DNA of 64,000 nt from Aulosira sp. ZfuVER01 (lineage in GTDB: Bacteria; Cyanobacteriota; Cyanobacteriia; Cyanobacteriales; Nostocaceae): the NCBI GenBank assembly GCA_034530615.2, contig JAVRCV020000032.1:32001-96000 (forward strand). Direction: 5' to 3'. Shown here in pieces: positions 1,245 to 21,101 of this stretch. The translations under genes were made by a program, and so were the position numbers. A model generated the notes under the pieces. That model searched no databases. It was not told the origin of the DNA and saw only the letters and a program-made list of their open reading frames with translations. The first letter of the stretch is position 1, and the number at the start of each line of letters is the position of its first letter.

Positions 1245-2474
1245 ATGAAACAGATTCAATGGCTGGTGGTTTGGAGCCTTAGTCTTTGGACATTATCATC
1301 AACTAAGTTACAAGCTGCTCAAGTATATGAAAGCGGCAAATTGTTTACAGAATTAACAACACCAGTGATTTCTAGAGACAATTTAGAAAACTTCAACCTT
1401 GAAACTATAAAAATCAATAACAATAACTCAAAAGTCCTACCCTCTCGATTCGAGCAAAGTCCTTTTTTAATTGCTGCACCTGAAAATTTTAATCCTGGTC
1501 TGCAAGTACCGCCACCATTACCAAAACTGCCGCCAAATCCTAGCCCACCATCAACTTCTGCTGAAACAATTGAGCCATTCGCAGTTTTAGACAGCATCCA
1601 AACTGACTTTCGTAATGATACAGATAACTTCGGTCAACATAATTTGTTCATCGAACCAACATTTCAGTTTCGGTTGCCTAATGGCAATAAACTACTTTTC
1701 ACAACAGGCTTTGACTTTTTTAAGCAACGGGGTGTGGAATCAATTACTAATATTCCTTTTCAAATTGGTTGGCAAGGAAAACTTGGAGAAGTAACTCTGC
1801 AAACAGCCGCAGGAGTTGATATGTTCAACCGTTTACCTATAGCGATAAATTTCAATGCTAAAGTTGAAGTCCCTATTGTAGCGCCGAGAGTTTCTGATTC
1901 GGGAAAATTACTTTCGGCTGTAATCATATCAGCAAACTTAGACCACAGTCCTTATAAATTTAATGCCCGAACTTTAGATAATCAAATTACGGCTTGGCGC
2001 TTTGGGCCTGATTTATATTGGCAGATTGATCGAAATACTAGCTTGTTTTCTTCATTGCGCTTGGGTAACTACAACGACGGTAATTCAGAAATTCAATCTT
2101 TTAGCAGACTAGAACGCAAGTTTGGACAATTTTCTGTGGCGGCTAACTTGTTCACCTGGAGTTACGATCGCAATGTAGAACGCACCAGTGGCTATTTTTC
2201 TCCACCAGATTTTTTAGTATACAACGCTGAGGTGGCTTGGGAGGGAGATATTGCCAATTTCTTGCGCTGTCGATTAGCTGCAAATTTAGGACAGCAGCGA
2301 CTTAACGGTGAATTTGATAATGCTAATGCTTATCAAACTCGCTGTACAGCCAAGCTTTCACCGGAAATAGAGGCAGATTTAGGCTATAGCTTTAGTAATG
2401 TGCGGAATCAAGACACGGGGGGGAGTGCTTACGGTGGTAACTCTTTAACAGGACAATTGCGGGTCAAATTTTAA
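1245..2474 (+). CDS. Putative outer-membrane beta-barrel, polysaccharide export porin-like (BcsC C-terminal/PgaA-like)
   Basis: Signal peptide and Pro-rich linker, then alternating beta-strand pattern. GYFSP motif resembles BcsC/PgaA barrels. C-terminal Phe (GQLRVKF) fits a BAM signal. Heads the glucan locus. Confidence 0.6.
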   Translation: MKQIQWLVVWSLSLWTLSSTKLQAAQVYESGKLFTELTTPVISRDNLENFNLETIKINNNNSKVLPSRFEQSPFLIAAPENFNPGLQVPPPLPKLPPNPSPPSTSAETIEPFAVLDSIQTDFRNDTDNFGQHNLFIEPTFQFRLPNGNKLLFTTGFDFFKQRGVESITNIPFQIGWQGKLGEVTLQTAAGVDMFNRLPIAINFNAKVEVPIVAPRVSDSGKLLSAVIISANLDHSPYKFNARTLDNQITAWRFGPDLYWQIDRNTSLFSSLRLGNYNDGNSEIQSFSRLERKFGQFSVAANLFTWSYDRNVERTSGYFSPPDFLVYNAEVAWEGDIANFLRCRLAANLGQQRLNGEFDNANAYQTRCTAKLSPEIEADLGYSFSNVRNQDTGGSAYGGNSLTGQLRVKF

Positions 2475-2513
2475 GCAGTAGGGCGACGCAGATAAAGCTA
2501 ACTGGCGGGGATC

Positions 2514-2768: not shown

Positions 2769-4226
2769 ATGAGTTCTGATTTTCAACCGCCACCAAAAGG
2801 CTTATCCATACTTGCTTCTGTAGGAGGGGTAGTTACTGCAATAATTGCGATCGCTCTTTTAAATTTTTGGTCTGGTCGTCTTTCGCAAAATACACAAACA
2901 TCTGCAATATCAACATCTCAAACTGTTACTCCTACTCCTACTCCTACGGCAAACTTGGAACAACAAGCGCAAAAGGTGGCAAAACTTGATGCTGACTCTA
3001 TAGTTTTACAAGGAACAGTCATTACTCCTAGCGAACTAATCGACAAAACGCCATTTATTACGGCTGGAGACCAAAAACTGGATGCAGTTGACATGGCTGC
3101 TGCGCGTCTAGCTTGGTCATATTTTCAACGCAACTGGAACGATCAAACAGGCTTAGTTAACTCTGCTGATGGCTTTGCGGCTGTGACTATGTGGGATCAA
3201 GCAGCTGCGATCGCCGCTTTAGTTAGTGCGAGAGAACTCGATATCATCCCCGCCGCAGAATTTGAGGCGAAGATGACTAAGATGTTGCAGACTCTAGCAT
3301 CACTGCCTTTATATAAAGGTGAATTGCCTAACAAAGTCTACAATGCCAAAACTCTTATACCTGTTAATTACGGACAATTAGAGAAAAAGGAAGAAGTTGG
3401 TTGGTCAGCCATTGATTTGGGACGGATGGCAATATGGCTGAAGATTGTCGAAGCCAAGTATCCCAAAATGCGATCGCCTGTACAAGCTGTGTGGAAGCAT
3501 TGGCAAGTCAAGCGCCTCACCAAAAACGGGCAAATGTACGGTACTGCCGTTGTTAAAGATAAAGAACAGTATAACCAAGAAGGTCGCTTGGGCTACGAGA
3601 ATTATGCTGCCTACGGTTTGAAACTGTGGGGTTTAGATGTCAAGCAAGCCTTAGATCATAAATCTAATACCGCCTTTGTTAATCTTTACGGACAGGGAGT
3701 TCCCTACGATCGCCGCGACGCTAAAAACTCAGGTGCAAATAACTACGTTCTCAGCGAACCTTATATACTCGATGGCATAGAAACAGGATTTAAAGCCTTG
3801 CCTAAAGCTTATGCTGACAGAATTTTAGCTGCTCAAGAAGCGCGTTATCAAGCAACAAACGAATTAACTGCCCTCACAGAAGATAACTTAGATCGTCCGC
3901 CGTATTTTGTGTACAACAGCTTGTTTGTTAACGGCAAACCTTGGGCAACAATTACCGATACCCAAGAACAGCATAACAATTTACGATTCCTCAGTGCTAA
4001 AGCTGCGATCGGCTGGAATGTACTTTACAACACTGCTTACACCCATTCCCTAGCTGATACAGTCTTCAACAAACTGAAATCTGATAAAGGTTGGTACAAC
4101 GGATTGTACGAATCTCTGCGTCAGCCAAATAAATCTCTCACCGCTAACAATAATGGTGTAATTCTGGAAAGCTTTCTTTATAAACAAGTTGGTAAACCTC
4201 TTACCGTCTGGGCGGGAGTAAATTGA
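2769..4226 (+). CDS. DUF3131 domain protein (putative beta-glucan-active glycoside hydrolase/transglycosylase), N-terminal membrane anchor
   Basis: Motifs AWSYF, TMWD, ELPNKVYN, GWSAIDLGR, EGRLGYE, SEPYIL, TEDNLDRPPYF and NNNG are typical of DUF3131. A TM helix and Thr/Pro linker precede the domain. Confidence 0.8.
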   Translation: MSSDFQPPPKGLSILASVGGVVTAIIAIALLNFWSGRLSQNTQTSAISTSQTVTPTPTPTANLEQQAQKVAKLDADSIVLQGTVITPSELIDKTPFITAGDQKLDAVDMAAARLAWSYFQRNWNDQTGLVNSADGFAAVTMWDQAAAIAALVSARELDIIPAAEFEAKMTKMLQTLASLPLYKGELPNKVYNAKTLIPVNYGQLEKKEEVGWSAIDLGRMAIWLKIVEAKYPKMRSPVQAVWKHWQVKRLTKNGQMYGTAVVKDKEQYNQEGRLGYENYAAYGLKLWGLDVKQALDHKSNTAFVNLYGQGVPYDRRDAKNSGANNYVLSEPYILDGIETGFKALPKAYADRILAAQEARYQATNELTALTEDNLDRPPYFVYNSLFVNGKPWATITDTQEQHNNLRFLSAKAAIGWNVLYNTAYTHSLADTVFNKLKSDKGWYNGLYESLRQPNKSLTANNNGVILESFLYKQVGKPLTVWAGVN

Positions 4227-4319: not shown

Positions 4320-4688
4320 TCACTCAGTAGGTATTACTGTTTGCTTGACTGCTGGGCGTGCTTTCTTGCGATTTGACTTGCGCGTTCCCCCAGCCATCCC
4401 ATACTCATCACTATTTTTGCCATACTGAGATGCAACATTCAGCAGCATCTGTTCGGAATAACTATTTAACTCACGTTCGGCTTCTAGTAATGCATTCTGT
4501 GTTTTATCCACTATCGTTCGTGCTTGATTGTAAGTCGCTAGCTTCTCTCGGATATCCAGAATTTTGCTATTGTAACCAGCGATTGAGTATCCATTGCCAA
4601 AGTCTAACTGAGAATTAATCATCTGCATTCCTTCAATCCGTCGTTCAGCTTTGGTGAGTGCGGGGGAGTTGCGTTTGCGTTGCGCCAT
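4320..4688 (-). CDS. Conserved hypothetical helical protein with basic termini
   Basis: 122 aa with LDFGNGYS and YGKNSDEY..AGG.RKS motifs, which I recall from a widespread uncharacterised family. Confidence 0.75.
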   Translation of the reverse strand: MAQRKRNSPALTKAERRIEGMQMINSQLDFGNGYSIAGYNSKILDIREKLATYNQARTIVDKTQNALLEAERELNSYSEQMLLNVASQYGKNSDEYGMAGGTRKSNRKKARPAVKQTVIPTE

Positions 4689-4900
4689 AAAGTTTTCCTT
4701 TTGGGATTTGAAGATAAAGAACCTAAAAAACCATACTTAGTTCTTTGTATACAACTACAATACGCACTAAGCAGATGCAGTAGCCTGAGTGAAGCTACAG
4801 AATCTTTGAAAGCATAAAGAATAGCAAATTGGATAAATGCGGGTATTTTTGCGGAAATAAGTCTACAAAAACAGGTTTATGAGTTGTGAAGCTAAAATAC

Positions 4901-5041
4901 GAATCAAAAACTTAATTTGCGAATCAGAAACTTAATTTGCGAATCAAAAACTTAATTTGCGAATCAAAAACTTAATTTGCGAATCGCAAAACTTGATTTG
5001 CGAATCAGAAACTTAATTTGCGAATCAGAAACTTGATTTGC
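4901..5041. repeat. Tandem repeat, 7 x ~20 bp (GAATCARAAACTTRATTTGC), ending next to a HIP1 site
   Basis: Six 20-bp units and one 21-bp unit read directly. GCGATCGC lies at 5045-5052. Confidence 0.95.
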
Positions 5042-5096
5042 GAAGCGATCGCTATCATTGTTGTTATTCCACAGCAAATATCTTAAGCTTTGGCTC

Positions 5097-5447
5097 TCAC
5101 AAAGGTAAATACAACACAACTCCATTCCATTCTGCTTGTTCACTAAAATCGATCAGTAGTAACAACTCGTCAATTGCCTGTCGAATTGGCATCCGATCGT
5201 TGACCACAAACATCCCTGCCATCGCTTCTCCTCCAACCAAACGCTCATAAGCAAAATCTGGCATCATTGCACGATCGTGAGTCAGAAGGATACGCTGATT
5301 AATTGCTGCCCAAGCTAAAATTGCTGGATCGTCTACTTCTCGCAAACCAACATCTTGAACTCGAAGTAGATCGAGATTAGGTTGACGCAAAAACAGTCCT
5401 CGAACAATGTCACCGTTGAAGTTCTCATCGCTTAACAAACTCAGCAT
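5097..5447 (-). CDS. DUF5615 / VapC45-like PIN-domain toxin
   Basis: LSDENF, D..ILAWA...RILLTHD motifs; paired with the upstream DUF433 gene. Confidence 0.85.
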   Translation of the reverse strand: MLSLLSDENFNGDIVRGLFLRQPNLDLLRVQDVGLREVDDPAILAWAAINQRILLTHDRAMMPDFAYERLVGGEAMAGMFVVNDRMPIRQAIDELLLLIDFSEQAEWNGVVLYLPL

Positions 5448-5455
5448 AATCGGTG

Positions 5456-5785
5456 CTACTGATTCTGCTGAGATAGTAAACGAGTACGAATTAGGCTGAG
5501 ATCGGGTTGAATACTAGACAAACGTTGCTGCACTGATTCAGCTAACTGCTCTCTCTGATTTAAGTATGCTTGTACAGCATCTTGGTGTCGAAGATAGTAA
5601 CCAATTGTGTTGTAGACATCAGACAAAGATAGAGTTGAGTATCGATGAACAATAGACTCAGGGGATGCACCATCATGAAACGCTCGGATCACAGTCTCCA
5701 GCAAAACCCTTGAATTCCCAACTCGAATTGCTCCGGTTTCATCTTCCCATAGAGGCGGTGTCTCACGTTCCAAAACAAGGCTCAT
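5456..5785 (-). CDS. DUF433 domain antitoxin (VapB45-like)
   Basis: IRVGNSRV..ETVI..F..GASPE.I...Y.TL.L.DVY pattern. Confidence 0.85.
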   Translation of the reverse strand: MSLVLERETPPLWEDETGAIRVGNSRVLLETVIRAFHDGASPESIVHRYSTLSLSDVYNTIGYYLRHQDAVQAYLNQREQLAESVQQRLSSIQPDLSLIRTRLLSQQNQ

Positions 5786-5917
5786 GAATTAACTTTCCTA
5801 GATCCAGTACAAAACGATCGTAACTTAATGCAGAGCGCAATTGCTTTGTTGAGTGGCTGAAAGAGCCTTGCATAATAAAGTATGAATTGAGCGATCGCGC
5901 ATTCCTGCATTACAATT

Positions 5918-6124
5918 TTACTCCCCACGTCCTGGTTTGCAATCTGCAAAACCTAATGCCTCAGTATCAAGAAAACTGGCGATCGCCATCTCAATTACTG
6001 CTTCGATGGGATATTCAATTTCAGTAGCACGAGCAACCAAAGCTTCTCGAATTCTTTCAGGCAAACGTTCCAAGATAACTTCGGCATCAGAGGGAGAAAG
6101 TTGCTCTTGAAATTTAGCTTGCAT
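5918..6124 (-). CDS. Small conserved hypothetical protein (possible antitoxin/RHH-like)
   Basis: 68-aa ORF with an upstream GGAAGG RBS-like site; IEYPIEAVIEMAIASFL motif. Confidence 0.65.
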   Translation of the reverse strand: MQAKFQEQLSPSDAEVILERLPERIREALVARATEIEYPIEAVIEMAIASFLDTEALGFADCKPGRGE

Positions 6125-6262
6125 AACTTTACCTTCCCCTAAATTTTCTCACAGCCTAACATCATGGCTTGTTGTCAGTTGTTTTAATAACCTTTTTAGC
6201 CTATGCCTAAGCGATCGCCCATGACTGCTATCGCTAGCTGTATCCTAATTTCGCTAAACTTT

Positions 6263-6349
6263 TGGTAACGTTCCCCATCAGCGGCGACAGAATATAACTG
6301 AAACGAAGTGAGAATACTCTGTAAGTCCACTGCATTAGGGTTGTTATGC
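6263..6349 (-). mobile_element. attC-like integron cassette recombination site (87 bp)
   Basis: Minus strand reads GCATAAC-AACCC-TAATGCAGTGGAC...ACAGAGTAT..ATATTCTGT...GCCGCTGATGGG-GAAC-GTTACCA. This gives AAC/GTT core boxes, complementary L-like boxes and an inner stem, just downstream of vapC. Confidence 0.6.
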
Positions 6350-6381
6350 CGCAATTAACACGACTTATTTCTATTGACGCT

Positions 6382-6810
6382 TCAAACCGTCCAATCTTCA
6401 GTCACTAACCCCTCCACTTTACTAAAATCTCGAAGATTACGGGTTAACAAAATCAATCCACGGGATAGCGTAATGGCTGCGATCCTAGCATCCATCTTTG
6501 CAAGTTGAATCCGTTGCGACTGTAATTGACTCAATGCCGTAGCTGCACCTGCATCAAACGAAACGAGGGGTAACACCTTGAAGTCGCGGACGAGTCGCGT
6601 CATCATTTCATACCCCTTCACGATGTCATTTAAGTAACGAGCGCGATTGATATAAGTGTGGCTGCCAAGCATCTGCTCGTGAAATGTTACTGTCGATACA
6701 GCAAAATCTGATAGTGGATAGTGAGCCATGCGTGTTGAAAGGTTAGTGTAATCCTGTCCTGCTTGTCGCTGAAGAATGCTCAGATGATCCGTATCTAATA
6801 AATACTTCAT
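6382..6810 (-). CDS. vapC: VapC family PIN-domain toxin
   Basis: YLLDTD start, D..IAA, LLTRN.RDF motifs. Confidence 0.9.
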   Translation of the reverse strand: MKYLLDTDHLSILQRQAGQDYTNLSTRMAHYPLSDFAVSTVTFHEQMLGSHTYINRARYLNDIVKGYEMMTRLVRDFKVLPLVSFDAGAATALSQLQSQRIQLAKMDARIAAITLSRGLILLTRNLRDFSKVEGLVTEDWTV

Positions 6811-7022
6811 GGCTCGTCTTGCGCTTCGAGAATAGATTCATCGCCTTGACGAATCGCTCGACCATAAGCAAGTACCTCTTCAAAAGCAGGTTCATCCTTA
6901 AAAGACCCTGTAATTTGTTGCAGCCAATTGGTTGCTTGAGGAGTCGCAACTTGCTTCTGCAATTCAGCAATCGCTGCTTCGACTGCTGCTAGCCGTTCCT
7001 CTAAAGAAGTGTTAGTTGCCAT
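6807..7022 (-). CDS. Putative antitoxin for the downstream VapC
   Basis: 71 aa, acidic, ATGA overlap with vapC; W...ITGSFKDEPAFEE motif. Confidence 0.75.
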   Translation of the reverse strand: MATNTSLEERLAAVEAAIAELQKQVATPQATNWLQQITGSFKDEPAFEEVLAYGRAIRQGDESILEAQDEP

Positions 7023-7211
7023 TTGATTTTCCTCATCATCACTTAATTAGTTGTTTTTGTCTGAAGAATAGCGCGTCTGGTTTTGTAATTTCTGCAACGT
7101 CATCGGCCTTTCTCCAAAGCTCTCTAGGCTCATTGTAAATTGCTGCTGAGGCTTTATCCTCTAGATTTTCTGCTAGCCTGTTGGTGCTATAACGCTCACC
7201 TATTATCACCT

Positions 7212-7580
7212 TCAAAGCGTTGCCTTATCATCGAAAGACAAAATGATCTGTCCGTCTTGCAGTGAAGCTCGAATCGTAATCTGTTCGTCATCACGTATCT
7301 CTATGTGGAGCGTATTCGACTCCATCCGGTCTGGCTTACTTACATTATGCTCTCGCAAGACTACGCTGTAATTTCCTGCTTTGAGACGGGTGTAAACGCT
7401 ATTCGGTGGTGCTAAATGGGCAAATCTTGCTCCTGTTCCATAAACATTGCGATTGATGTAAAGCTTGTAAGCACATATACCACCGACCAAAGAAGTATCG
7501 CCCTGCACAATCAATGTGGAGCGGTTTGCTGCGTCCCACTCTTTGTTAAATTTCTCCCAGAAACCGAAAATGGATCTCAT
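7212..7580 (-). CDS. Hypothetical protein (beta-rich)
   Basis: 122-aa ATG ORF co-oriented with the small-gene array; no recognised motif. Confidence 0.55.
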   Translation of the reverse strand: MRSIFGFWEKFNKEWDAANRSTLIVQGDTSLVGGICAYKLYINRNVYGTGARFAHLAPPNSVYTRLKAGNYSVVLREHNVSKPDRMESNTLHIEIRDDEQITIRASLQDGQIILSFDDKATL

Positions 7581-7660: not shown

Positions 7661-10429
7661 ATGATATACAAGCACCATCAACAAAAGCTGTTGAGATGGA
7701 TTGCATTGTTCCTAGTTGGGACAGTGCTGCAATTGTTCTTTTACATCCCGACACCAGTCTTATCCCAAAATTCTAGTAGTTGTAGCAATATTACTGCCCC
7801 GCTCACGCCCGAAGAACAAACTTATGCTCGTGCGGCTTGGCAATATTTTGTCAAAAATTATCAGCCAGCGACAGGATTTACTAATTCTACTGGGGGTTAT
7901 CCTTCGGGTACGCTTTGGGATATGGGGAATTACTTGATGGCGTTGAATGCGGCGCGATCGCTAAATCTCACAGATCAAGCAGACTTTGATGGGCGTCTCA
8001 ACAAGTTTTTGACGACTCTCAGCAGCCTAAAGCTGTTTGAAGATGCCTTACCTAATAAAGTCTACAACGCAGCCACCGGACAAATGGTTGATTATGGTAA
8101 CAATCCCAACGAACGGGGGATTGGCTGGTCTGCTTTAGATGTAGGTCGGATACTAGCGGCGTTTGATGTGATTCGTACTTGTCACCCGCAATATAATGAT
8201 TGGCTCAAAGGAATTGTAGCCAAGTGGCAAGTAGGGCGATCGCTCAAAGATGAACAACTTTACGGTGCTATGGTTCTCCCAGATAAAAAAACATTACTAG
8301 TACAAGAAGGACGACTCGGCTACGAAGAATACGGCGCTAGAGGTTATCAACTTTGGGGTTTTTCTGCACCAAAAGCTCTTGCCTTGCAACCATATAAGAT
8401 GGTTGAAGTTAACGGTGTGCAAATTCCTGTTGATACTCGCGATTTCCAAAGCACCAACGCAAATAATTATGTTGTTAGTGAATCTTATATTCTTGATGGT
8501 ATTGAATTTGGCTTGCAAGGTGAGTTAGCAGATTTTGCAGCTAGAGTTTTAGATGTGCAGAAGCGGAGGTACGATGCTACAGGTCAGTTGACTGCGGTAA
8601 CAGAAGACAACATCGACCAACCACCTTATTTTCTTTACAATACTGTTTACTCTAACGGTAATGCCTGGGCGACAATTACAGACGAAAACAAACCTTACCC
8701 CCAGTTTCGCAGTCTTAGTACAAAAGCAGCTTTTGGCTGGCGTTATCTTTTTCCAGATAATGCTTATGCGCAAAAGATTTTTGATGCAGTTAAGGATCTT
8801 CGCAGTCCTAATAATGATGGTTACTACGCTGGCATTTATGAAGAATCGAAGCAGCCGAATAAAGCTTTAACTGGCAATACCAACGGGTTAATTTTAGAAA
8901 TTCTGTACTACAAAGCTAGAGGAAATCGGCCTTTAATTGCCTCTGCTGCTACCAGTACACCAACTAAACCGCCTAGCAATCATACTTCTGCAACTCCACC
9001 AAATTCTAGTGTTCCGGCTCCACCTCCTGCGGATACTTCTAAGGTTGATGAGGTGGCTGTCGCACCCATTCCACCAGTTGGTAATCCAGAGTCATCGTCT
9101 AACTTAAAACTAACTCGACCTTTAACAGTAGTTGAACGTCGCTATGCAGAAGCCGCATGGAGATATTTTCAAGCAAATTATCATTCTAAAAGTGGGCTGA
9201 TAGACGATCGCAGTGATTTTAAAGGTGCAACTCTTTGGGGATTAGGAGATTATTTAGCAGCATTACACGCAGCGCGATCGCTTGATATTATTTCTGCGAA
9301 AGAATTTGACCAGCGCACCCGCCATTTGTTAGCAGCTTTAGGTAAACTGCCGTTATTTGCAGGGGAGTTACCAAATCGAGGATACGATACGCGATCGCTC
9401 CAAGCAATAGATTATGGCGGAAATCCTGTTCCCGACGGTAACGGCTGGTCAGCTTTAGATTTAGGTAGGATGCTGGCAGCACTTTACAACTTAAAAAGCC
9501 ATCATCCAGAATACGCCGCAGCCGTCGATCGAGTTGTCTTAGATTGGTCATACCTGCGGGTAGTGCGGGATGGTATTTTATCCAGTACTACAACCGCCAA
9601 AGATCAAGAAGGACGTACCCTTACCCGCGTCAACCCGGAAACCCGCTTAGGGTATGAAGAATATGCCGCGCGTGCTTTTCAATTATGGGGTTTTGATGTT
9701 GAGGGTTCGGCTGTTGGCGGTGAATATAAAACTGCTTTGGTGGAGGGAGTGAAAGTACCAATCCAGCGTCAGCGAACTGATACGAATTCCCAAGTTAATC
9801 AATATACAGTCAGCAATCCTTTCTTACTTTATGCGTTGGAATTTGGCTTAGATCCAAAAATGCGATCGCTCTTTGAGCCAATTTTTCAAGCACAAGCCGA
9901 ACGTTACCGTCATACCGGAACCCTGACAGCCTCAGCTACTACCCTAATAGACCGCAAGCCTTACACTGTTCACAGCGCAATTACTGCCAAAGATGAACCT
10001 TGGATCGCTGTAGGAGATGATGGGCAAACTGTACCGAAAGCGCGAATGGTGAGTACAGCAGTAGCTTTTGCTTATCATGCCTTACTTCCAGAACATCAAT
10101 ATAGTCAGAAGTTATTCCCAGCAACGACTGATTTATATAACCCACTGACAGGTTATTATGAAGGCTTTTATGAAACCACAGGTAAAACAGCAGTTGGTTT
10201 CACAGGCAGCACCAACAGCATGATATTGCAATCGTTGCTATATACAGTCATGAATCGCCAACCTTTAATTCGTCCTACTGCAATGAAATCTCCCTGGTGG
10301 GAGGCTGTAGCGCAAGGAAATTCTGGTCGCGGTTTACCCAGAATTCCCCAGTCAACAGCTAAGTTAATTTCTGATAGTAATGGCAGTTACTGGGTTTCTA
10401 GTAGCGAAAATCGGAGAGTTGCAAAATAG
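7661..10429 (+). CDS. Secreted tandem double-DUF3131 protein
   Basis: Signal peptide and two DUF3131 repeats (AWQYF/AWRYF, WSALD.GR, RLGYEEY) joined by a Pro/Ser/Thr linker. Confidence 0.85.
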   Translation: MIYKHHQQKLLRWIALFLVGTVLQLFFYIPTPVLSQNSSSCSNITAPLTPEEQTYARAAWQYFVKNYQPATGFTNSTGGYPSGTLWDMGNYLMALNAARSLNLTDQADFDGRLNKFLTTLSSLKLFEDALPNKVYNAATGQMVDYGNNPNERGIGWSALDVGRILAAFDVIRTCHPQYNDWLKGIVAKWQVGRSLKDEQLYGAMVLPDKKTLLVQEGRLGYEEYGARGYQLWGFSAPKALALQPYKMVEVNGVQIPVDTRDFQSTNANNYVVSESYILDGIEFGLQGELADFAARVLDVQKRRYDATGQLTAVTEDNIDQPPYFLYNTVYSNGNAWATITDENKPYPQFRSLSTKAAFGWRYLFPDNAYAQKIFDAVKDLRSPNNDGYYAGIYEESKQPNKALTGNTNGLILEILYYKARGNRPLIASAATSTPTKPPSNHTSATPPNSSVPAPPPADTSKVDEVAVAPIPPVGNPESSSNLKLTRPLTVVERRYAEAAWRYFQANYHSKSGLIDDRSDFKGATLWGLGDYLAALHAARSLDIISAKEFDQRTRHLLAALGKLPLFAGELPNRGYDTRSLQAIDYGGNPVPDGNGWSALDLGRMLAALYNLKSHHPEYAAAVDRVVLDWSYLRVVRDGILSSTTTAKDQEGRTLTRVNPETRLGYEEYAARAFQLWGFDVEGSAVGGEYKTALVEGVKVPIQRQRTDTNSQVNQYTVSNPFLLYALEFGLDPKMRSLFEPIFQAQAERYRHTGTLTASATTLIDRKPYTVHSAITAKDEPWIAVGDDGQTVPKARMVSTAVAFAYHALLPEHQYSQKLFPATTDLYNPLTGYYEGFYETTGKTAVGFTGSTNSMILQSLLYTVMNRQPLIRPTAMKSPWWEAVAQGNSGRGLPRIPQSTAKLISDSNGSYWVSSSENRRVAK

Positions 10430-10453
10430 ATCTTGCAAAAATCTAAGTAAGAA

Positions 10454-10599: not shown

Positions 10600-10606
10600 A
10601 TAAAAA

Positions 10607-10650: not shown

Positions 10651-10674
10651 CAATATCCAAAATATTTACTAATG

Positions 10675-11658: not shown

Positions 11659-13629
11659 ATGGCTTCTATATTTATTGATAATTCCCCAAATTTTTCGGGC
11701 AACAGCCGTTCAATTTTAAAAAAAAGAACACTATTATTTCGCTACTTAGCAGAAATAAATTTAATTTTTGGGATCTGGTATTTACAATGGCGCATCACTC
11801 ATTCAATCAATTTTGATGCGCTGTGGCTCTCGATACCCTTGCTATTAGCAGAAATCTATAGCTATTTTGGTGGTGTAATGTTTGTTATCGGGTTGTGGCG
11901 GCCTTTAGTTAGGCAGATTAAGTCACTCGATCTGATGACTCCACCTTTGCCAAAATCCGACTGGCCTAGTGTAGATGTATTTATCACTTGTTACAACGAA
12001 CCGCCGGAAATAGTAGAACAAACTGCTCAGGCGGCTCTAGCAATAGATTACCCTGCCAACAAATTGCGCGTTTATGTGCTAGATGATGGTAATTCTGCGG
12101 CTATGAGAGCCATGACAGAGAAGTTGTGTATTGCAGATTTGCAAACACCACTACTACAGCAAGAAGTTCATCGAATAGATGCAGAACGCTCTTTATTAGT
12201 AGAACGCCTGCAACAATTAGAAAATCTGACATCTAATACTCAAGCGGCCGAACAGTGGTTGCAAGAAAGTTTGGAAGAAAATACTGTCGGCTCGTTTGTC
12301 CAAAGTCTGCGAGAGTTGATTCTTTGGCTACCTCCCACTCATCAAAGTATAAGCGATCGCCTCAAAACTGAAAGGCAAGCTTTAGAAGCAGCTATTCATC
12401 AAAAAGAATTGGAATTAGTTGAACTGGCTCGATTCCGTTACATTGCTCGTCCCAAACCTGCTGGCGTACCCCACCACGCTAAAGCAGGCAATCTCAATTA
12501 TGCAATGTTCTCTGGCGAAACTTCTGGAGAATTTATTTTAACTTTAGACGCAGACCATATACCCAAACCACAATTTCTCAAACGAGTTTTGCCATATTTC
12601 TACAACTACAATCTGTTCACAGGTAAATATGAGCAAAATCGTATTGCTTTTGTCCAGACACCCCAAGATTTTTATAATATTCCTGCGGGCGATCCTTTTG
12701 GACATCGAGCAAGTTTATTTTATGGGCCGCTGCAACAAGGCAAAGATGGCATGAATGCCGCTTTTTATACAGGAACAAATGCGATTCTTCGCCGAGAAGC
12801 ATTAATTAATGTTGGATTACAATATTTTGCTGATGATTTTGCCAAAGATGAAAAACGCTTAGATGAATTTCAGTTAGTAGGTGGCGTATCCAGCAACAGT
12901 ATTACAGAAGATATGAATACAGCCATGCGTCTACATGGTGCTGGTTGGAAATCTATTTATCACAACGAACTTTTGGCAGAAGGTTTAGCACCGGATGACC
13001 TCAGTTCTACTTTGAAACAACGATTACGTTGGGCGCAAGGAACTATCCAAGTACTACTGCGAGAAAATCCCCTCACAAAATCAGGGCTAACATTTTGGCA
13101 ACGTCTGCAATATTTTAAGACGATGTATAGTTATTTTTCTGGTTTTGCTACTCTAATTTTTATTGCTTGCCCAATTATTTACTTTTTTACAGAAATTGTT
13201 CCAGTTAAAACCTATGGCTCTGATTTTGCTCTACACTTTTTCCCAGCATTTATTATTAATCGCCTGACATTTTTAGCAGCTACTTGGGGAATTCCTGCTA
13301 GTGAAGTTTGGCGCTCTGAACAATATGCGATCGCATTATTTCCTTTGTTAATCCAAGCTGTTTGGAGTGTATTTACAGGACAAAAAATAAACTTTCAAGT
13401 TACACCCAAACAAAGGCAAGCGGGAATTTATTTGCGGCTAGTTTGGCCGCAACTAGTTATATTTAGCTTGACAATATTAGGAATACTTTGGAGCGTTTAC
13501 CGCTTTGCCATTGGTCATCTTCACAATCCTTGGGTTCACTTACTCAATAGTGCTTGGGCTGTTTATAATTTACTGCTTTTGTGGGCTATTATTCGTGCAT
13601 CTGTTTGGCAGCCTGCAAAGGAGTCATAA
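11659..13629 (+). CDS. cesA: Cellulose-synthase-like processive GT2 glucan synthase, no PilZ domain
   Basis: DDG, HAKAGNLN, DAD, QTPQ, TED, QRLRW (QxxRW) and FQVTPK motifs plus N- and C-terminal TM helices. The protein ends right after the last TM. Confidence 0.85.
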   Translation: MASIFIDNSPNFSGNSRSILKKRTLLFRYLAEINLIFGIWYLQWRITHSINFDALWLSIPLLLAEIYSYFGGVMFVIGLWRPLVRQIKSLDLMTPPLPKSDWPSVDVFITCYNEPPEIVEQTAQAALAIDYPANKLRVYVLDDGNSAAMRAMTEKLCIADLQTPLLQQEVHRIDAERSLLVERLQQLENLTSNTQAAEQWLQESLEENTVGSFVQSLRELILWLPPTHQSISDRLKTERQALEAAIHQKELELVELARFRYIARPKPAGVPHHAKAGNLNYAMFSGETSGEFILTLDADHIPKPQFLKRVLPYFYNYNLFTGKYEQNRIAFVQTPQDFYNIPAGDPFGHRASLFYGPLQQGKDGMNAAFYTGTNAILRREALINVGLQYFADDFAKDEKRLDEFQLVGGVSSNSITEDMNTAMRLHGAGWKSIYHNELLAEGLAPDDLSSTLKQRLRWAQGTIQVLLRENPLTKSGLTFWQRLQYFKTMYSYFSGFATLIFIACPIIYFFTEIVPVKTYGSDFALHFFPAFIINRLTFLAATWGIPASEVWRSEQYAIALFPLLIQAVWSVFTGQKINFQVTPKQRQAGIYLRLVWPQLVIFSLTILGILWSVYRFAIGHLHNPWVHLLNSAWAVYNLLLLWAIIRASVWQPAKES

Positions 13630-13769: not shown

Positions 13770-14099
13770 ATGCCTGCAAACATGAGAACAATTGAATTGA
13801 CTGGAATATTAGATGGAATTAAAGGTAATGAATTACGTCGTGAAATTAACGATAGTTTAGCTGACGGGATTGATATTTTATTAATAGATATGAAAGCAGT
13901 TAGCTTTGTCAATAGTTCAGGTTTAGGTTCTTTAGTATCAGCAATGCAAGTAGTACGTAATGCTAATGCTAAACTTTTCCTCTGTTCTATTAATGACCAA
14001 GTTAGGATGTTATTTGAGCTTACAAAACTGGACAGAATTTTTCAAACATTTGTCGATAAAGATGACTTCAATCGTCAGTTTTTAGCTGCAACAGAGTAA
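13770..14099 (+). CDS. STAS domain anti-sigma-factor antagonist (RsbV/SpoIIAA-like)
   Basis: 109 aa; V.FVNSSGLG phospho-Ser motif; LFELTKLDRIF. Confidence 0.9.
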   Translation: MPANMRTIELTGILDGIKGNELRREINDSLADGIDILLIDMKAVSFVNSSGLGSLVSAMQVVRNANAKLFLCSINDQVRMLFELTKLDRIFQTFVDKDDFNRQFLAATE

Positions 14100-14105: not shown

Positions 14106-15296
14106 TTAATTAAAGAATATTTTTAACAACGAAAAATCATCTTCCAGATTTTGTTGGTGATTTAATGCCATAATCTGTTCTAAAACAAGATTTAGATAAC
14201 AGTTATTGACATTGCTATATTTGATTAGTAAATCAATAAAAGCATCAACTCCCCAAATCTTTCCATCTGGCTGACTTATTTCATAAACTCCATCACTAAA
14301 GATGTAGAGAGTGCTGTCTTGTTCAATATCAAATACAGCATCCTCAAAATCAACATCAGGTAAAAAGCCTATTGGTAAATCTAGAGAACTGAGTTTTCTA
14401 ACTTGAAAGCTGGTTGCAGATGTACCAGATAAAAGTAAAGCTGGAGGATGTCCGGCGTTAGCGTAAACAAGTTGGCGTTTGACGCGGTGATAAACTCCAT
14501 ACCAAATTGTGAAGTATTTATCACCGTGATTTTTCATTTGAAAAGCATGATTAAGTGCTTTGAGAACTTCGCTAGGTTGGTAAAAGTTAGTGTTGGATAG
14601 GGATTGCGATCGCAAAATATTTAATACAGATACAGATAGCAAAGCAGAACCTACCCCATGTCCTGATACATCTAACAAATAAATTGCTAAATGCTCGTTA
14701 TCCAACCAGTAATAGTCGAAGCAATCACCGCCTAACTGTGCTGAGGGAACAAACAATGCTTCTGTAGTTACTGTTCCTTGAAGGGGCGAAGGTAAAAGCG
14801 ATCGCACATAATCAGCCGCCTCAGCCAATTCTGCCTCTAAAATTTGCTTTTGGGTTTGCAAATTCTGATTGAGTATTTCTAAAGCTTGTTTTTTACTTTG
14901 TAAATCTTGATTTAGTTGATATAACCTTAACCCTGCTCTTACTCTCGCCTTTAATTCACTCATTTGGATTGGCTTAGAAACAAACTCATCTGCTCCCGCA
15001 TCTAATCCTCTTACTCTATCTTCCTCCTCACCCGGAGCCGCGCCTTTAGCAGTCAGCAGAATAAAAAAAGTAGTAGCTAACTCTGGATCTGCCTTAATTT
15101 GACGACATACTTCTAATCCATCTAACTGTGACATCACCCAATCACAGATAATTAAAGCCGGACGTAGCAATCGAGCTTGTGCAATTCCTTCCTCTCCATT
15201 ACTAGCAACAGTAGTCTCATAACCCTGTTTTTGGAGAGTTCTATTTAGTGCGGCTCTAACAATCGGATCGTCATCAATAACTAAAATTTTTACCAT
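14106..15296 (-). CDS. Response regulator with PP2C (SpoIIE/RsbU-like) phosphatase output
   Basis: N-terminal REC (VIDDD, ICDW, SKP), coiled coil, then GGDCFDY, DVSGHG, NAGHPP, SDG and DD motifs. Confidence 0.92.
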   Translation of the reverse strand: MVKILVIDDDPIVRAALNRTLQKQGYETTVASNGEEGIAQARLLRPALIICDWVMSQLDGLEVCRQIKADPELATTFFILLTAKGAAPGEEEDRVRGLDAGADEFVSKPIQMSELKARVRAGLRLYQLNQDLQSKKQALEILNQNLQTQKQILEAELAEAADYVRSLLPSPLQGTVTTEALFVPSAQLGGDCFDYYWLDNEHLAIYLLDVSGHGVGSALLSVSVLNILRSQSLSNTNFYQPSEVLKALNHAFQMKNHGDKYFTIWYGVYHRVKRQLVYANAGHPPALLLSGTSATSFQVRKLSSLDLPIGFLPDVDFEDAVFDIEQDSTLYIFSDGVYEISQPDGKIWGVDAFIDLLIKYSNVNNCYLNLVLEQIMALNHQQNLEDDFSLLKIFFN

Positions 15297-15447: not shown

Positions 15448-15864
15448 GTGGATAATAAAATTTCTTTAAAAATCAATACAGATATTACAGCTTTATCTTC
15501 TGTTTTATCTTGGTTTGAGCAAATAAATCAACCGCCCATAACTAAACCAGAAATTTGGTGGCAATGCCAAACCTTACTGGCAGAAGGTTTTACTAATATT
15601 GTTGAACACGCCCACAAAAATTTATCAGCACAAACCCCTATTACTATAGAAGTTTGCCGTTATGCTCAATCTATAGAAATACGTATATTTTCTCAAGGTA
15701 AACCTTTCAATTTAGAAGAAAAATTACAAGAAGTATCTGAATTTGAAGAAAACAATCGAGAACGTGGACGTGGTTTAAAAATAATGTCAAGTCTCGCTGA
15801 CAAGTTAAGTTATGAACAGATAGCAGAAAATAGCTACTGTTTATTTATAAGTAAATTATATTAA
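15448..15864 (+). CDS. RsbW/SpoIIAB-like anti-sigma factor Ser kinase
   Basis: EGFTNIVEHAH N-box, GKPF, ERGRGL.IM. Confidence 0.88.
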   Translation: MDNKISLKINTDITALSSVLSWFEQINQPPITKPEIWWQCQTLLAEGFTNIVEHAHKNLSAQTPITIEVCRYAQSIEIRIFSQGKPFNLEEKLQEVSEFEENNRERGRGLKIMSSLADKLSYEQIAENSYCLFISKLY

Positions 15865-16043: not shown

Positions 16044-19000
16044 ATGACAGCACCATTACCTGATAACGAAGCACAGAGAATTGAAGCTCTTTTAGAATAC
16101 AAAGTTCTCGATACTCCATCTGAAGCAGCATTTGACGATCTCACACGTTTAGCATCATATATTTGTGGAACTCCCATTGCTTTAGTCAGTTTAGTTGAAA
16201 AAAATCGTCAGTGGTTTAAATCAAAAATTGGGCTAGATGCGCTAGAAACACCTAGAGATATAGCATTTTGCGCCCATGCAATTGTGCAATCTGATGTTTT
16301 TACTGTACCCGACGCTACAGCCGACGAAAGGTTTGCGGCAAATCCATTAGTTACCTCTGACCCTAATATTCGCTTTTATGCTGGTGTACCTTTAACTAAC
16401 CCTGAAGGCTATGCTTTAGGAACACTTTGCGTCATTGACTACGTACCGAGAAACCTCACCCCAGAACAAGTTGAAGCTTTAAAAATTCTCGGTCGCCAAG
16501 TTATTAAACAAATGGAACTACGACGTAATTTAGCAAATTTGGTACTTGTAACTAATCGACGTAAACAGGTAGAAAAGATACGTAAGCATTTTTTTAAAAG
16601 AGTTGCGGGTGGCTTTGGATTAGCATCAGTAATTTTAGTATTGATTGGCTTAGTTTCTTATCGCAGCACGACAGTTTTAATTAATAGCAATAACCAAGTT
16701 AAAACAACTCAAGAAACAATCAATAGTTTAGAAGCATTGCTATCCCATATCCAAGATGCTGAAACTGGGCAACGCGGTTACATCTTGACGGGACAAGAGC
16801 GTTATCTTAAACCTTATCAGGCTACACTTGCAGAAGTGGAGCAAGAAATTGAAAATCTGAGAAATTTAACAGCCGATAAATATCAACAACAACAAATTGA
16901 AGTACTCAAACCACTATTAGCCGCTAAACTTAACGAACTCAAGCAAACTATCGAGTTGCGTCAGCAAAAAGGATTTGATGCAGCATTGCAACTAATCCTC
17001 ACAGATCGGGGGAAAAACCTGATGGATGATATCCGCAAGGTTATCTCTGATATGGAACAGCAAGAAAGGAAGCTACTGCAACAGCGATCGCTAATTGTCA
17101 AAGCCAGTGCTAATAATACAATCTCGATCATAGCGATCGCTATCTGCTCAAGTTTTCTCACTCTGGGCGTAATTTACTATTTAATTTATCGTGAGTTCAC
17201 CCAGCGCAAGGTTGTAGAAGATACACTGCACGAAGAGCGGAACTTTATCTCAGCAGTGCTAGATACAGTCAGTGCTTTAGTTATAGTTCTCAACCCACAA
17301 GGACAAATTGTTCGCTTCAATCAAGCTTGCGAGCAAATAACTGGTTACTCCTTCGATGAAGTCAGGGATAGATATTTCTGGAATTTGTTTTTAGTTCCTG
17401 AAGAAGTAGAGCCAGTCAAAGCAATTTTTGAGAAATTAAGAGCAGGGCACATAACTCCCAACTCTCAAAACTATGAAAACTATTGGAAAACTAAAGATGG
17501 TAGCCTACGGCTGATTTCTTGGTCAAATACCATTCTTCAAGACTACGAAGGCTCTGTAGAATACCTTATTGGTACAGGTATAGACATCACCGAGAGCAAA
17601 CAAGCAGAAGTTGCATTGCGTGAAAGTAAACGTTTTGCTGAGAGTGTCACAGAAAACACCACCAGCATGATCTATGTATTAGACTTAGACACCTTAACAG
17701 GGGTTTATGCAAATAAAAACCTGGCCGAATTTGTAGGTTATAACCCAGAAGATGCTGCGAAAATAGGTGCAAACCTTTTACCGACTATTATTCATCCTGA
17801 CGATCTACAGATTAGGATGGTTTATTACCAGCAGTTCCCGAATATCCCAGACGGTGAAATAGTAGAATTTGAGCAACGAGTCAAGCACATCAATGGTGAG
17901 TGGCGTTGGCTTTGGCATCGTGAAACTGTTTTTAAACGTCGAGCAGATGGTACACCACATCAAGTTATGGGAACTGCTCAGGATATTACTGAGCGCAAAC
18001 GCGCCCAAAAACATCTCACAGCACAATATGCTATTACTCGCGTTTTAGCAGAATCTAATTCAATCTCCGAAGCCACTCCCCAAATACTCCAAGCAATTTG
18101 TGAAAGTTTGGGATGGGATGTGAGCGAAATTTGGATGGTAAACCAGCAAGCAAATGTACTTGATTTTCTTGATTTGTGGCATCGTGCATCTTTGGAAATG
18201 CAAGTGTTTAAAACACTGAGTCAAGAAATCACGTTTGCACCAGGAATCGGATTACCTGGCCATGTTTGGGCTAGTGGTGAACCTGTTTGGCTAATTGATG
18301 TCGTTAGCGATATTAACTTTTTGCGAAACCAGATTGCTCAACAAATAGGATTACATGGTGCTTTTGGTTTCCCAATTCGTAGCGAAAAGAAAATTCTTGG
18401 CGTAATTACCTGCTTCAGCCATCAGATTCAGCAATATGACCAAGATTTGGCAAAAATCATGAATTCTATTGGCGAATTAGTAGGGCAGTTTATTCAGCGC
18501 AAGCAGGCAAAAGAAGAATTGCAACGCCAAAACTTGCGATCGCAATTATTTACAGAAATCACCCTCAAAATTCGCCAATCTTTGCAAATTGAAGAAATTC
18601 TGCAAATCACTGTTACAGAAGTTCAAAAAATTCTTCAAACTGACCGAGTTTTAATTTATCAGCTGTCGCCAGATGGATGCGGAAGTATTTTGATTGAGGC
18701 AGTAGTTGCTGACTGGCCAGCAATTAAAGCACAAAATAGCGCTGACTCTTATCTGCAAACAGAATATCAGCAACAATACAGTCTACAACAGTACCGACAA
18801 AAGCAAATTGACGCGATCGCTGATTTGGATGCGATCGTTATTCAACAAAGTCATCTAGAATTCCTGCAAAAGCTTGGGGTTAAAGCCAATTTAGTCATCC
18901 CCATACTCGTCAAAGAAGAACTCTGCGGTTTGTTAATTGTCCATCAGTGTGCCTCTCCCCGCCAATGGTCAAGTTTTGAAACTCATCTTTTACGCCAAAT

Positions 19001-21101
19001 CGCCGATCAAGTAGGCATTGCGATCGCCCAAGCCCAATTATTAGAAGTAGAAACTCAACAGCGACAAGAATTAGAAGTGGCTCGTCGTCAAGCAGAGTTG
19101 GCTTCTCAAGCCAAAAGTGCTTTTTTAGCCAATATGAGTCATGAAATCCGAACTCCCATGAATGCTGTATTGGGGATGACTGGCTTGATGTTGGAAACTC
19201 CCCTCAACCAAGAACAGCGAGATTTCATGGAGACAATTCGCATTAGCGGCGATGCTCTTTTAAGCCTGATTAACGAGATTTTGGATCTATCCAAACTTGA
19301 AGCTGGGGAAATGGCTTTAGAAACTCTGAATTTTGATTTATCAACTTGTGTGGAAGAGGTGTTAGATTTATTAGCCCCCCAAGCTCATAAGAAGGGATTA
19401 GAAATTGCCGCGTTGATTTATCGCAACGTTCCGACTCACCTGCAAGGCGATGCTACCCGTCTCCGACAAATTTTGATGAACCTGATTAGTAATGCGATCA
19501 AGTTCACCAGTAATGGAGAGGTAGTAGTACGAGCCGAATTGCGATCGGAAACTACCACTACAGCTAATATCCGCTTTACCATCACCGATACTGGTCTTGG
19601 CATTACCACCAAAGACCAAAGCAAACTGTTTACCCCATTTACCCAGGTAGATGCTTCTACTACTCGCAAGTATGGTGGCACTGGTTTGGGATTGGCTATC
19701 TGTAAACAATTAGTAACTTTGATGGGAGGAGAAATTGGAGTAGAAAGTCAGTTAGGCGAAGGCTCGAAGTTTTGGTTTGAGATTCCTTTTGCCAAGCAAC
19801 AAGAGCCTGTTACTACGATAGATGACTGTGGAATACTGAGCGATCGCCGTTTGTTAGTGGTTGATGACAATGCCACTAATCGCAAAATTATTTACCATCA
19901 AGCTACCCGTTGGGGAATGCAAGTAGATAAAGCTGATAGTGCTGAGGCTGCCTTGAGCGCTATGCTAACAGCTTGCCAGCAAAACAAACCTTATGATGTT
20001 GTCTTAATTGATATGCAGATGCCCCGAATAAATGGTCTGGAATTGGGAGAACAAATTAAGGCCAATTTTGCTATTGCTAAAACACCTTTAATTATGCTTA
20101 CTTCTACTAATCAACGAGATGAAGTACATCGGGCGCTCAACATAGGATTTGCTGCTTATTTAGTCAAACCCATTAAAGCATCACGACTCCTCGATACGAT
20201 TATGAATGTTTTAGAAACTAAAGGTGAACTGGTACAAGAGGAATTGAAAGTTATAATTCAGGAGTGTGGAATGAAAAATTTAGACAAAAAAAATGAGCCT
20301 TTTGCTAGCTCGCCTAAGTTAAGAATCTTACTAGCTGAAGATAATTTAGTAAATCAAAAAGTAGCATTAAAGCAACTACAAAGTCTTGGCTATACTGCTG
20401 ATGTAGCTGCCAATGGTCAAGAAGTTCTGCAACTATTAGAAATAGTTCCTTACGATTTGATTTTAATGGATTGCCAAATGCCAGTCCTCGACGGTTTGGA
20501 AACTACAAAAGAAATTCATCGTCGGCAAGAGAGCTTCTTTGCCAACCATCGTCGTCCTATAGTAATTGCGATGACTGCTAATGCCATGAAAGAAGACAGA
20601 CAAATGTGCCTAGATGCAGGAATGGATGACTATATAAGTAAGCCTGTCATCAAAGAAAATTTGGCAATAAAATTAGAACATTGGAACCAGTTTCTCCTAG
20701 AGACACGAGAGGTAATTACGTTAGAGAATCCAGTTTCTCCGATAGAAGAAATTGATATACACAATCTACCAATTGATTGGCAACACTTACATCAAATTTC
20801 CGAAAATGATGCCGAATTTGAATTACATTTGTTGCAATTATTTGTAGAAGATGTTACATCTCGTTTGGACTTAATTAAAGTGGCGATCGCTGCTCGTGAT
20901 TTTCCGCAAATGGCGAAAGAAGCCCATCAGATTAAAGGTGCTAGCGCCAATATAGGGGCTACAACTATGTATCTAGCTGCTGACAAACTAGAACAATTAG
21001 CTCACAAGCAAGAGCGTAGAGGCACTACCGAATTAATCACAGAGATAGAAGAAGTTTTTAATCATATTCAAAGCTTTGTCATAGCAAGCCAGAAGCTGTA
21101 A
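16044..21101 (+). CDS. Hybrid histidine kinase GAF-CHASE3-PAS-PAS-GAF-GAF-HisKA-HATPase-REC-REC-Hpt
   Basis: [23 protein letters not shown]3 between TMs; PAS/PAC motifs; [17 protein letters not shown]; two REC domains; AHQIKGAS Hpt. Confidence 0.92.

Follow-up and report, generated by a model that had tools for sequence, protein, structure and literature searches.

Plant CesA is usually traced to the bacterial lineage of the PCR-type synthase, which published accounts, so far as we found, still treat as a lone enzyme, with its export and control undescribed. Does such a synthase work by itself, or is it one part of a larger machine? This question is raised by a 64,000-nucleotide stretch of the Aulosira sp. 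ZfuVER01 genome (contig JAVRCV020000032.1, positions 32,001 to 96,000; hereafter the window, whose own numbering we use throughout), where the gene for a family 2 glycosyltransferase (GT2) lies near genes for an outer-membrane β-barrel, an anchored DUF3131 protein, a tandem DUF3131 protein, and a group of STAS, phosphatase, and kinase proteins (Table 1). Our answer is that the locus encodes a PilZ-less PCR-type CesA and a set of conserved partners, which together probably make up one synthase-dependent β-glucan secretion system. A first-pass annotation of the window had described the barrel, anchored DUF3131, tandem DUF3131, and GT2 genes as co-oriented, and our open reading frame (ORF) and Pfam analysis bore out their coordinates and put all four on the plus strand. 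They are not contiguous, because minus-strand genes at 4320–7580 and 10675–11322 interrupt the series.

The GT2 has an intact D,D,D,QxxRW signature, with the motifs DDG142, HAKAGN273, DADH297, FYTG369, TED416, and QRLRW454 and the gating-loop motif FQVTPK579, and a Pfam search of the protein gave no PilZ match at E ≤ 0.01. Against the CelA model TIGR03030 it scores 337.1 bits, below the curated cut-off of 699.1, and against the OpgH model NF003959 it scores 21.8 bits (cut-off 550). In the PDB it matches BcsA from E. coli (7lby, E = 2.7e-51) and Rhodobacter (4hg6, 8.5e-48), as well as plant CesA (8vi0, 1.3e-36) and barley CslF6 (8dqk, 3.4e-25). An insert of ~110 residues (~150–265), mostly helical and charged, lies between the DDG and DADH motifs, in the interval from DDG142 to HAKAGN273. 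In a simple hydropathy scan, one strong segment appears toward the N-terminus and three to four toward the C-terminus; the description of PCR-type enzymes gives seven transmembrane helices (2 + 5). A 2025 review assigns two features to PCR-type CesA, both of them present here: PilZ is lacking, and an additional module separates the first catalytic motif from the second. Passages of Zhao et al. describe the Synechococcus PCC 7002 protein A2118 as 788 residues long with "an insertion of ~90 amino acids." Judged by its sequence, the GT2 is the known cyanobacterial PCR-type CesA of the alr3757/A2118 kind, and its orthologs in Nostocaceae are 77–93% identical to it.

This identity was already known; what we add is the partner set. 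The 2025 review names no partners for PCR-type CesA, and in the open-access literature we found no paper linking this synthase to DUF3131, a barrel, or a partner switch. SYNPCC7002_A2117 is named in the literature as "conserved hypothetical" only. In Anabaena, alr3756 ("unknown protein") and alr3757 are listed as one operon, and alr3758 is an anti-sigma factor antagonist, HetR-dependent and up-regulated in heterocysts, that has been interpreted as a sigma-factor regulator. These papers back the gene order around Anabaena cesA that the first-pass annotation had proposed.

We determined how constant the partner set is by searching the same 301 cyanobacterial genomes for DUF3131, for a GT2 ortholog (at least 59% identity), and for the barrel. 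Full-length DUF3131 was found in 18 genomes (with fragments only in two more), the GT2 ortholog in 18, and the barrel in 18, and one and the same set of 17 genomes has all three. The GT2 and DUF3131 matches are separated by 59–1,817 bp in 16 of the 17 other genomes that have both. There are irregular cases: in one genome (G016) DUF3131 adjoins a GT2 of 38% identity and no barrel was matched, and another (G285) gave a weaker barrel match only. Among 80 named Nostocaceae loci, DUF3131 lies upstream of GT2 on the same strand in all 77 that have at least 3 kb of upstream sequence (within 1.5 kb in 75), the tandem gene being directly upstream of GT2 in related loci. Downstream of GT2, for the 76 loci with at least 4 kb on that side, there are genes for STAS (74), PP2C phosphatase (73), and RsbW-like kinase (72). 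In other orders and classes (G080, G291, G299, and G011) the arrangement is compact and co-oriented, running from the barrel through the anchored DUF3131 and two to three further DUF3131 units to GT2 and STAS. Gene overlaps of 4 bp occur among co-linear genes of the system, and some genomes have triple DUF3131 fusions of 1,350–1,415 residues on Pro-rich linkers.

The association extends well beyond close relatives. A metagenome scan with a DUF3131 alignment returned 75 loci, of which we examined the 22 with at most 50% identity (L160–L181, GC 0.28–0.67). In 15 of these, a GT2 of 584–632 residues, 28–36% identical to that of the window, lies beside DUF3131, often with overlapping stop and start codons, while the remaining seven contigs are 1.2–5.1 kb long or cut at the gene. 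An RsbW-type kinase is encoded directly upstream of GT2 in 9 of the 15 (six detected by Pfam and three by BLAST). A receiver-PP2C protein is present in 10 of the 15 and STAS in 8 of the 22. Other neighbors vary and include sugar-1-phosphate nucleotidyltransferase (four loci), GH2 (three), OpgC (three), GH16 (two), and phosphoglucose isomerase (two); the nucleotidyltransferase and the isomerase fit a glucose polymer. These findings show that the linkage of GT2, DUF3131, and the barrel is not due to chance, and the proposal in the first-pass annotation that the genes form one conserved system is borne out by joint occurrence and adjacency across cyanobacteria and distant metagenome contigs.

What might the DUF3131 proteins do? 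The anchored protein has a transmembrane helix (residues 12–30), a Thr/Pro/Gln-rich linker, and a predicted periplasmic (α/α)6 domain with the motif TEDN. The tandem protein starts with a hydrophobic segment (residues 11–29) and carries two domains, one of clade B that keeps TEDN (7778–8995) and one of clade C where ATTL replaces it (9158–10375). An AlphaFold2 model of the anchored domain, built from a 30-sequence alignment, is an (α/α)6 barrel with a mean pLDDT of 94.1. The first-pass annotation had related DUF3131 to β-1,2-glucan enzymes and to the cyclization domain of cyclic glucan synthase (Cgs), and the fold searches agree. Among the matches listed by Foldseek, ranks 1–19 are all β-1,2-glucan enzymes or Cgs, with E-values of 1e-10 to 5e-7 for the top group, and the GH8 protein BcsZ appears at ranks 36–37 (E = 4e-4, TM 0.47). 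VIA-align gives the GH189 cyclization domain 8wy1 (Z 36.7, rmsd 2.8 over 348 residues), followed by Agrobacterium Cgs (33.4), GH144 (about 32), GH192 and GH194 (about 29.7), and GH162 (25); clan members and Cgs fill its top 15 rows (Z 25.1–36.7), and the next, unrelated (α/α)6 proteins score at most 22.2. The models thus support DUF3131 as a fold relative of β-1,2-glucan enzymes, much closer to them than to BcsZ.

The signal in sequence comparisons is fainter. A DUF3131 profile finds 8wy1 at E = 1.4e-5 over the first 100 residues, and a single-sequence PDB search gave nothing useful (8wy1 at E = 0.84 at best). PF11329 is the sole family reported for the three DUF3131 domains, with no match to GH144 (PF10091) in them, and none was found in the whole genome. 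Compared by hhalign with GH144-like proteins from other genomes (probability 68%, first ~120 residues covered), DUF3131 has its invariant D122 (SAIDLGR) placed on the aspartate of IDTALL, which is the proposed GH144 base position. Over 30 DUF3131 domains, D122 and E244 are conserved in 30, E177 and E354 in 28, and E183 in 27. A 50%-identity library contains 1,007 clusters of this large family at E ≤ 1e-3, and a FastTree tree resolves four old paralog clades: the anchored single type, the first and second tandem domains, and a fourth type (D) that is absent from the window. The invariance of D122 and E244 and the near-invariance of E183, E177, and E354 across all four clades form a pattern typical of catalytic pockets. 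The pair E277/D278 of TEDN is replaced by ATTL or NTAA in seven of seven second tandem domains, that of the window included. By spacing only, E183 and the Y285 and F286 of a PPYF motif are candidates for three residues conserved in the β-1,2-glucanase clan, namely the general-acid Glu, the Tyr of subsite −3, and the Phe close to the catalytic water (E239, Y367, and F286 of XcSGL). An orphan DUF3131 gene is present elsewhere in the genome (G000:C52:177632–178975, L013, minus strand), between ruvC and a kinase/LdpA cluster and with unrelated neighbors; the tree places it as a recent duplicate of the anchored type, and K277 stands where TEDN has its conserved Glu.

The barrel gene could start at TTG 1224 or ATG 1245, the latter being likely. 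The protein contains SGYFSPPDF, ends in LRVKF, and matches Pfam BCSC_C at E = 2.6e-4 and 20.7 bits, below the cut-off of 23.5; single-sequence PDB searches found nothing useful, and no TPR was matched in it by Pfam. In an AlphaFold2 model based on 10 orthologs, residues 121–415 are confident (pLDDT 84–96 in the barrel blocks), and residues 1–112, a signal peptide and Pro-rich linker, are predicted to be disordered (pLDDT < 50). The reference barrels PgaA, BcsC, and PelB have 16 strands, and we counted 16 by eye on the model. VIA-align matches it to PgaA (4y25, Z 27.5, rmsd 2.1 over 268 residues), BcsC (6tzk, 25.4, 3.2 over 274), and PelB (9h80, 24.3, 3.3 over 271), with the next porins (CymA and OmpG) at Z ≤ 17.7, and Foldseek agrees. 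Because of this likeness to PgaA, BcsC, and PelB, the modeled barrel is a PgaA/BcsC-type exporter of the synthase-dependent class that lacks the usual TPR arm.

Downstream of GT2, the parts of a partner switch of the RsbV/RsbW/RsbU type are complete, with a STAS protein, a HATPase_c_2 kinase, and a PP2C phosphatase. The STAS protein carries the serine motif NSSGLG, which we take to be the phosphorylated one. The first-pass annotation had seen this module as adjacent; its presence is confirmed, but its weight was underrated. The module is conserved and belongs to the core of the system, and some genomes have its kinase domain built into the synthase. The GT2 proteins of G157 and G197 (788 and 784 residues, at L095 12619–14985 and L101 8583–10937) contain an internal HATPase_c_2 domain (E = 1.4e-15 and 1.1e-16) at residues ~204–329, where the GT2 of the window has its helical insert. 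According to passages of a 2026 preprint, a receiver-SpoIIE phosphatase, a STAS domain, and RsbW-type kinases control a glycosyltransferase directly in Anabaena. From this fusion, the linkage of the module to GT2, and the Anabaena precedent taken together, we infer that the RsbW-like kinase may dock on the GT2 insert and that STAS, depending on its phosphorylation, may alter synthase activity. In most Nostocaceae loci, and in G299 and G086, a homolog of the hybrid sensor kinase adjoins the module, in the former often in inverted orientation; this kinase is likely to be the input to the receiver-PP2C phosphatase. In three metagenome loci (L165, L171, and L178), H-NOX (heme-NO-binding) genes adjoin a sensor kinase that flanks the GT2–DUF3131 module, a hint that gases may be sensed as an input in these organisms.

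The absence of BcsB, GH8, and PilZ from the window, reported in the first-pass annotation, gains its meaning from the rest of the genome (completeness 99.99%). Whole-genome six-frame family searches found three PilZ, one BcsB, and one GH8 matches, all on contigs C52 and C8, and none of the three families on the contig of the window (C32). Contig C52 carries a complete canonical cellulose operon (G000:C52:262064–272302, L014) for an OprB-like porin, a TPR protein, GH8, BcsB, and BcsA-PilZ, where BcsA, 868 residues long with its PilZ domain, scores 711 bits on the CelA model, above the cut-off. Therefore, the locus in the window is a second, separate system rather than a variant copy of the canonical operon, and each synthase has its own periplasmic (α/α)6 protein and pore. 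The suggestion that DUF3131 takes the role of BcsZ holds as regards position, since the DUF3131 genes occupy the same place as BcsZ in the canonical operon of this genome. In that operon BcsC is split into two genes, the OprB-like porin followed by a 785-residue TPR protein. The other two PilZ matches (G000:C8:119447–123543) lie inside very long frames of 2,327 and 1,279 residues unrelated to either synthase locus.

Taken together, these elements suggest how the system might work. The GT2 would polymerize UDP-glucose and thread the chain through its own membrane channel. In the periplasm, the membrane-tethered DUF3131 domain and the first tandem domain, both of which keep all the conserved acidic residues, are predicted to cut or transglycosylate the chain, and the second tandem domain, which has lost the acidic pair of TEDN in every genome examined, may only bind or guide it. 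The polymer would then pass through the outer membrane via the 16-stranded, TPR-less barrel. As for control, the hybrid kinase would set the state of the receiver-PP2C phosphatase, which, with the RsbW-like kinase, would set the phosphorylation of STAS, and the switch would probably act on the synthase itself, at the insert, in place of control by PilZ and cyclic di-GMP.

Which polymer is made? By analogy with the PCC 7002 ortholog type, we lean toward a glucan with β-1,4 linkages, hence cellulose-like, as published. Passages of Zhao et al. report that an A2118 null mutant no longer has a layer that otherwise lies between the peptidoglycan and the outer membrane, that this layer is removed by cellulase plus EDTA and labeled by a cellulose-binding domain, and that the Gluconacetobacter cellulose operon restores it. 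Several points weigh against our reading of the polymer or of the system as a whole. The passages on PCC 7002 describe no linkage analysis of the native polymer, and the mutant is impaired (slow growth) only at low salinity. All six characterized families of the DUF3131 fold group act on β-1,2-glucan only, one further group having no known substrate. We found no GH144-type, GH94, or MdoG (PF04349) family in the genome, which leaves it with no other known source or user of β-1,2-glucan, and its own GH8 is kept for the Bcs operon on C52. In 3 of the 22 distant loci OpgC directly follows DUF3131. The matching of E183 and E277 to the GH189 acid/base E1356 and nucleophile E1442 is approximate and by spacing alone; if it holds, the tandem protein would pair one active with one binding-only domain. 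In G289, GT2 and DUF3131 are 3.08 Mb apart, so adjacency is not strictly required, and G197, in which neither DUF3131 nor the barrel was matched, keeps GT2, STAS, and PP2C. The genomes counted are related to one another (seven families, several orders and classes) and are not independent samples, and the count is not a statistical test. Finally, Pfam found no sigma-factor domain among the 19 ORFs at 1–28,369, the rest of the genome not having been searched, and a transcriptional output of the switch is possible.

Much of this evidence can be read in favor of a different product, a β-1,2-linked periplasmic glucan, perhaps cyclic or short-chain, serving as an osmoprotectant of the osmoregulated periplasmic glucan (OPG) or cyclic-glucan kind, with DUF3131 proteins acting in the manner of GH189, as transglycosylases or glucanases that determine the chain length or form the rings. 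The ranking of the fold matches, with the GH189 cyclization domain at the top and BcsZ far down, the profile match to 8wy1, the alignment of D122 with the GH144 base, the lack of any other known source or user of β-1,2-glucan in the genome, the separate cellulose operon, the OpgC neighbors, and a periplasmic polymer that matters at low salinity in PCC 7002 would all suit it. We nevertheless find this product rather unlikely. The PCC 7002 layer behaves as cellulose in the digestion, labeling, and restoration experiments, the GT2 is far nearer to BcsA/CesA than to OpgH, some distant loci carry GH16 and GH2 genes, which suggest linkages of other kinds, and the fold clan includes the group whose substrate is not known. 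Moreover, we know of no BcsA-like enzyme that forms β-1,2 links. A broader version is similarly unlikely: the plant-like CesA clade and its DUF3131-linked relatives in other phyla might be a third route to β-1,2-linked periplasmic glucans and not a cellulose machine, where a BcsA-like GT2 makes the chain, DUF3131 trims or cyclizes it, and a phosphorylation switch acts as the gate. If so, the low-salt defect of PCC 7002 would be an OPG-type phenotype. As an observation apart, an open frame of 2,926 residues in G197 has a match of the GH144 type and suggests a gene like that for cyclic glucan synthase.

The roles of the other parts can also be questioned. The STAS, RsbW-like, and PP2C proteins match classical families. 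They could form a conventional partner switch, one that releases a sigma factor and governs how the cluster is transcribed rather than the synthase protein, and alr3758 has been interpreted in print as a sigma-factor regulator. This is unlikely in our view, given the lack of a sigma-factor domain in the interval searched, the kinase domain inside the synthase of G157 and G197, a module that stays with GT2 in contigs of widely different GC content, and the precedent in the preprint passages for direct control of a glycosyltransferase. It is improbable that the DUF3131 proteins have no enzymatic role here and are periplasmic scaffolds that bind the glucan, replacing BcsB and the absent TPR domain and leading the chain from the GT2 to the barrel. 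The cluster does lack BcsB and TPR, a BcsB search of G157, G197, G291, and G016 found none, one DUF3131 copy is membrane-tethered like BcsB, the domains can be strung as beads on Pro-rich linkers up to the triple fusions, and the TEDN pair is lost from second tandem domains; however, the other acidic residues are invariant or nearly so across all four clades and the fold relatives are all enzymes. That the DUF3131 genes serve the uptake or degradation of foreign β-1,2-glucans and lie near the synthase by chance is very improbable. The characterized relatives are indeed degradative glucanases, but the near-perfect co-occurrence and adjacency over orders, classes, and distant contigs and the 4-bp overlaps speak against it, and the genome yielded no transporter, GH94 phosphorylase, or GH144. 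The reading that we retain is a probable single secretion system, likely with direct control of the synthase and probably for a glucan with β-1,4 linkages.

Two stretches of the window are extra when it is compared to the nearest named relative (L015), one of ~2.7 kb that separates the two DUF3131 genes and one of ~1 kb ahead of GT2. The block at 4320–7580 looks like toxin–antitoxin cargo, and both this block and the PEP-CTERM gene are insertions into an older operon. We rejected the PEP-CTERM gene, which the first-pass annotation had listed as adjacent, as a member of the system because 0 of 80 related loci have a homolog and it sits in the DNA that is extra relative to L015. It occupies the place, just upstream of GT2, where many relatives carry a fourth DUF3131 gene of clade D; we sought a remnant of such a gene in 10300–11800 and found none.

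Table 1. Genes of the putative secretion system, inserted genes, and flanking genes, in window coordinates
Feature	Coordinates	Strand	Size and basis
Predicted outer-membrane β-barrel exporter without TPR	1224/1245–2474	+	416 aa from TTG 1224; BCSC_C below cut-off, fold
Inner-membrane-anchored DUF3131 protein, clade A	2769–4226	+	485 aa; PF11329 E 1.4e-157
ORF without family (inserted block)	4320–4688	-	
DUF5615 of DUF433/DUF5615 pair (inserted block)	5097–5447	-	
DUF433 of DUF433/DUF5615 pair (inserted block)	5456–5785	-	
PIN-domain protein (inserted block)	6382–6810	-	
ORF without family (inserted block)	7212–7580	-	
Secreted tandem DUF3131 protein	7661–10429	+	922 aa; two PF11329 stretches (1071 bits)
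PEP-CTERM protein	10675–11322	-	TIGR04155 E 1.2e-11
PilZ-less processive GT2, PCR-type CesA kind by sequence	11659–13629	+	656 aa; PF03552 142.7 bits
Single-domain STAS protein, anti-sigma-antagonist type	13770–14099	+	PF01740 E 8.4e-19
Receiver-SpoIIE/PP2C phosphatase	14106–15296	-	PF00072 E 5e-26, PF07228 E 4.5e-42
RsbW-like serine kinase (HATPase_c_2)	15448–15864	+	PF13581 E 1.5e-17
Hybrid sensor kinase	16044–21101	+	1,685 aa; Pfam: CHASE3, PAS, 3x GAF, HisKA, HATPase, 2x REC, Hpt
TPR-CHAT protein (beyond system)	21155–23764	-	
ComFB (beyond system)	23929–24480	-	
DUF928 (beyond system)	24897–25673	+	
CHASE2-GGDEF-EAL protein (beyond system)	25802–28369	+	

For the PCR-type synthase, these findings supply a parts list that comprises 1) two kinds of predicted periplasmic DUF3131 domain, 2) a dedicated exporter barrel, and 3) a partner switch that would replace cyclic di-GMP. 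If the product is β-1,4-linked, DUF3131 would be a new glycoside-hydrolase-like, glucan-processing family with a borrowed β-1,2-glucan enzyme fold, and if it is not cellulose, the synthase would be mis-named and make a different glucan. Either outcome would be useful, and the findings bear on the engineering of cyanobacteria for cellulose production.

How does this system compare with those already described? Like the proteobacterial Bcs system (BcsA-BcsB-BcsC-BcsZ), it has a processive GT2 with D,D,D,QxxRW, a predicted periplasmic (α/α)6 protein, and a 16-strand exporter barrel, but it lacks PilZ, BcsB, TPR, and GH8, with DUF3131 in place of BcsZ and a partner switch in place of cyclic di-GMP. 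The PCR-domain CesA proteins of Anabaena (alr3757), N. punctiforme (Npun_F1469), and Synechococcus PCC 7002 (A2118) share with it the orthologous sequence, the lack of PilZ, and an insert that separates the first catalytic motif from the second. The order alr3756-alr3757-alr3758 is the DUF3131-GT2-STAS order seen here. In contrast to the synthase treated as alone in passages of those papers ("no other ces genes"), ours comes with seven conserved partners. With the GH144/GH189 group of β-1,2-glucan enzymes, DUF3131 has in common the fold (Z 25–37), a weak sequence signal, and acidic residues at or near catalytic positions, but it is a separate Pfam family (PF11329, not PF10091). Cyclic glucan synthase is a cytoplasmic megasynthase with GT84, whereas DUF3131 is predicted to be exported to the periplasm and is paired with a BcsA-like GT2. 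The OPG system (the GT2 OpgH with OpgG/OpgD of GH186, and OpgC) likewise combines a GT2 synthase with periplasmic glucan-processing proteins, and both the low-osmolarity phenotype given for PCC 7002 in the passages cited and the OpgC genes of the three distant loci would fit it; it differs in that the GT2 here is not OpgH-like, the genome has no MdoG, and an outer-membrane exporter is present. Finally, according to passages on the HenR-All4160-Alr3423 switch of Anabaena and the SypA/SypE switch of Vibrio fischeri, a REC-SpoIIE phosphatase, STAS, and an RsbW-type kinase are tied to an exopolysaccharide enzyme there as they are here, but STAS is fused to the glycosyltransferase in those switches, whereas in our system STAS is a separate protein, and the domain fused into the synthase, in some genomes, is that of the kinase.

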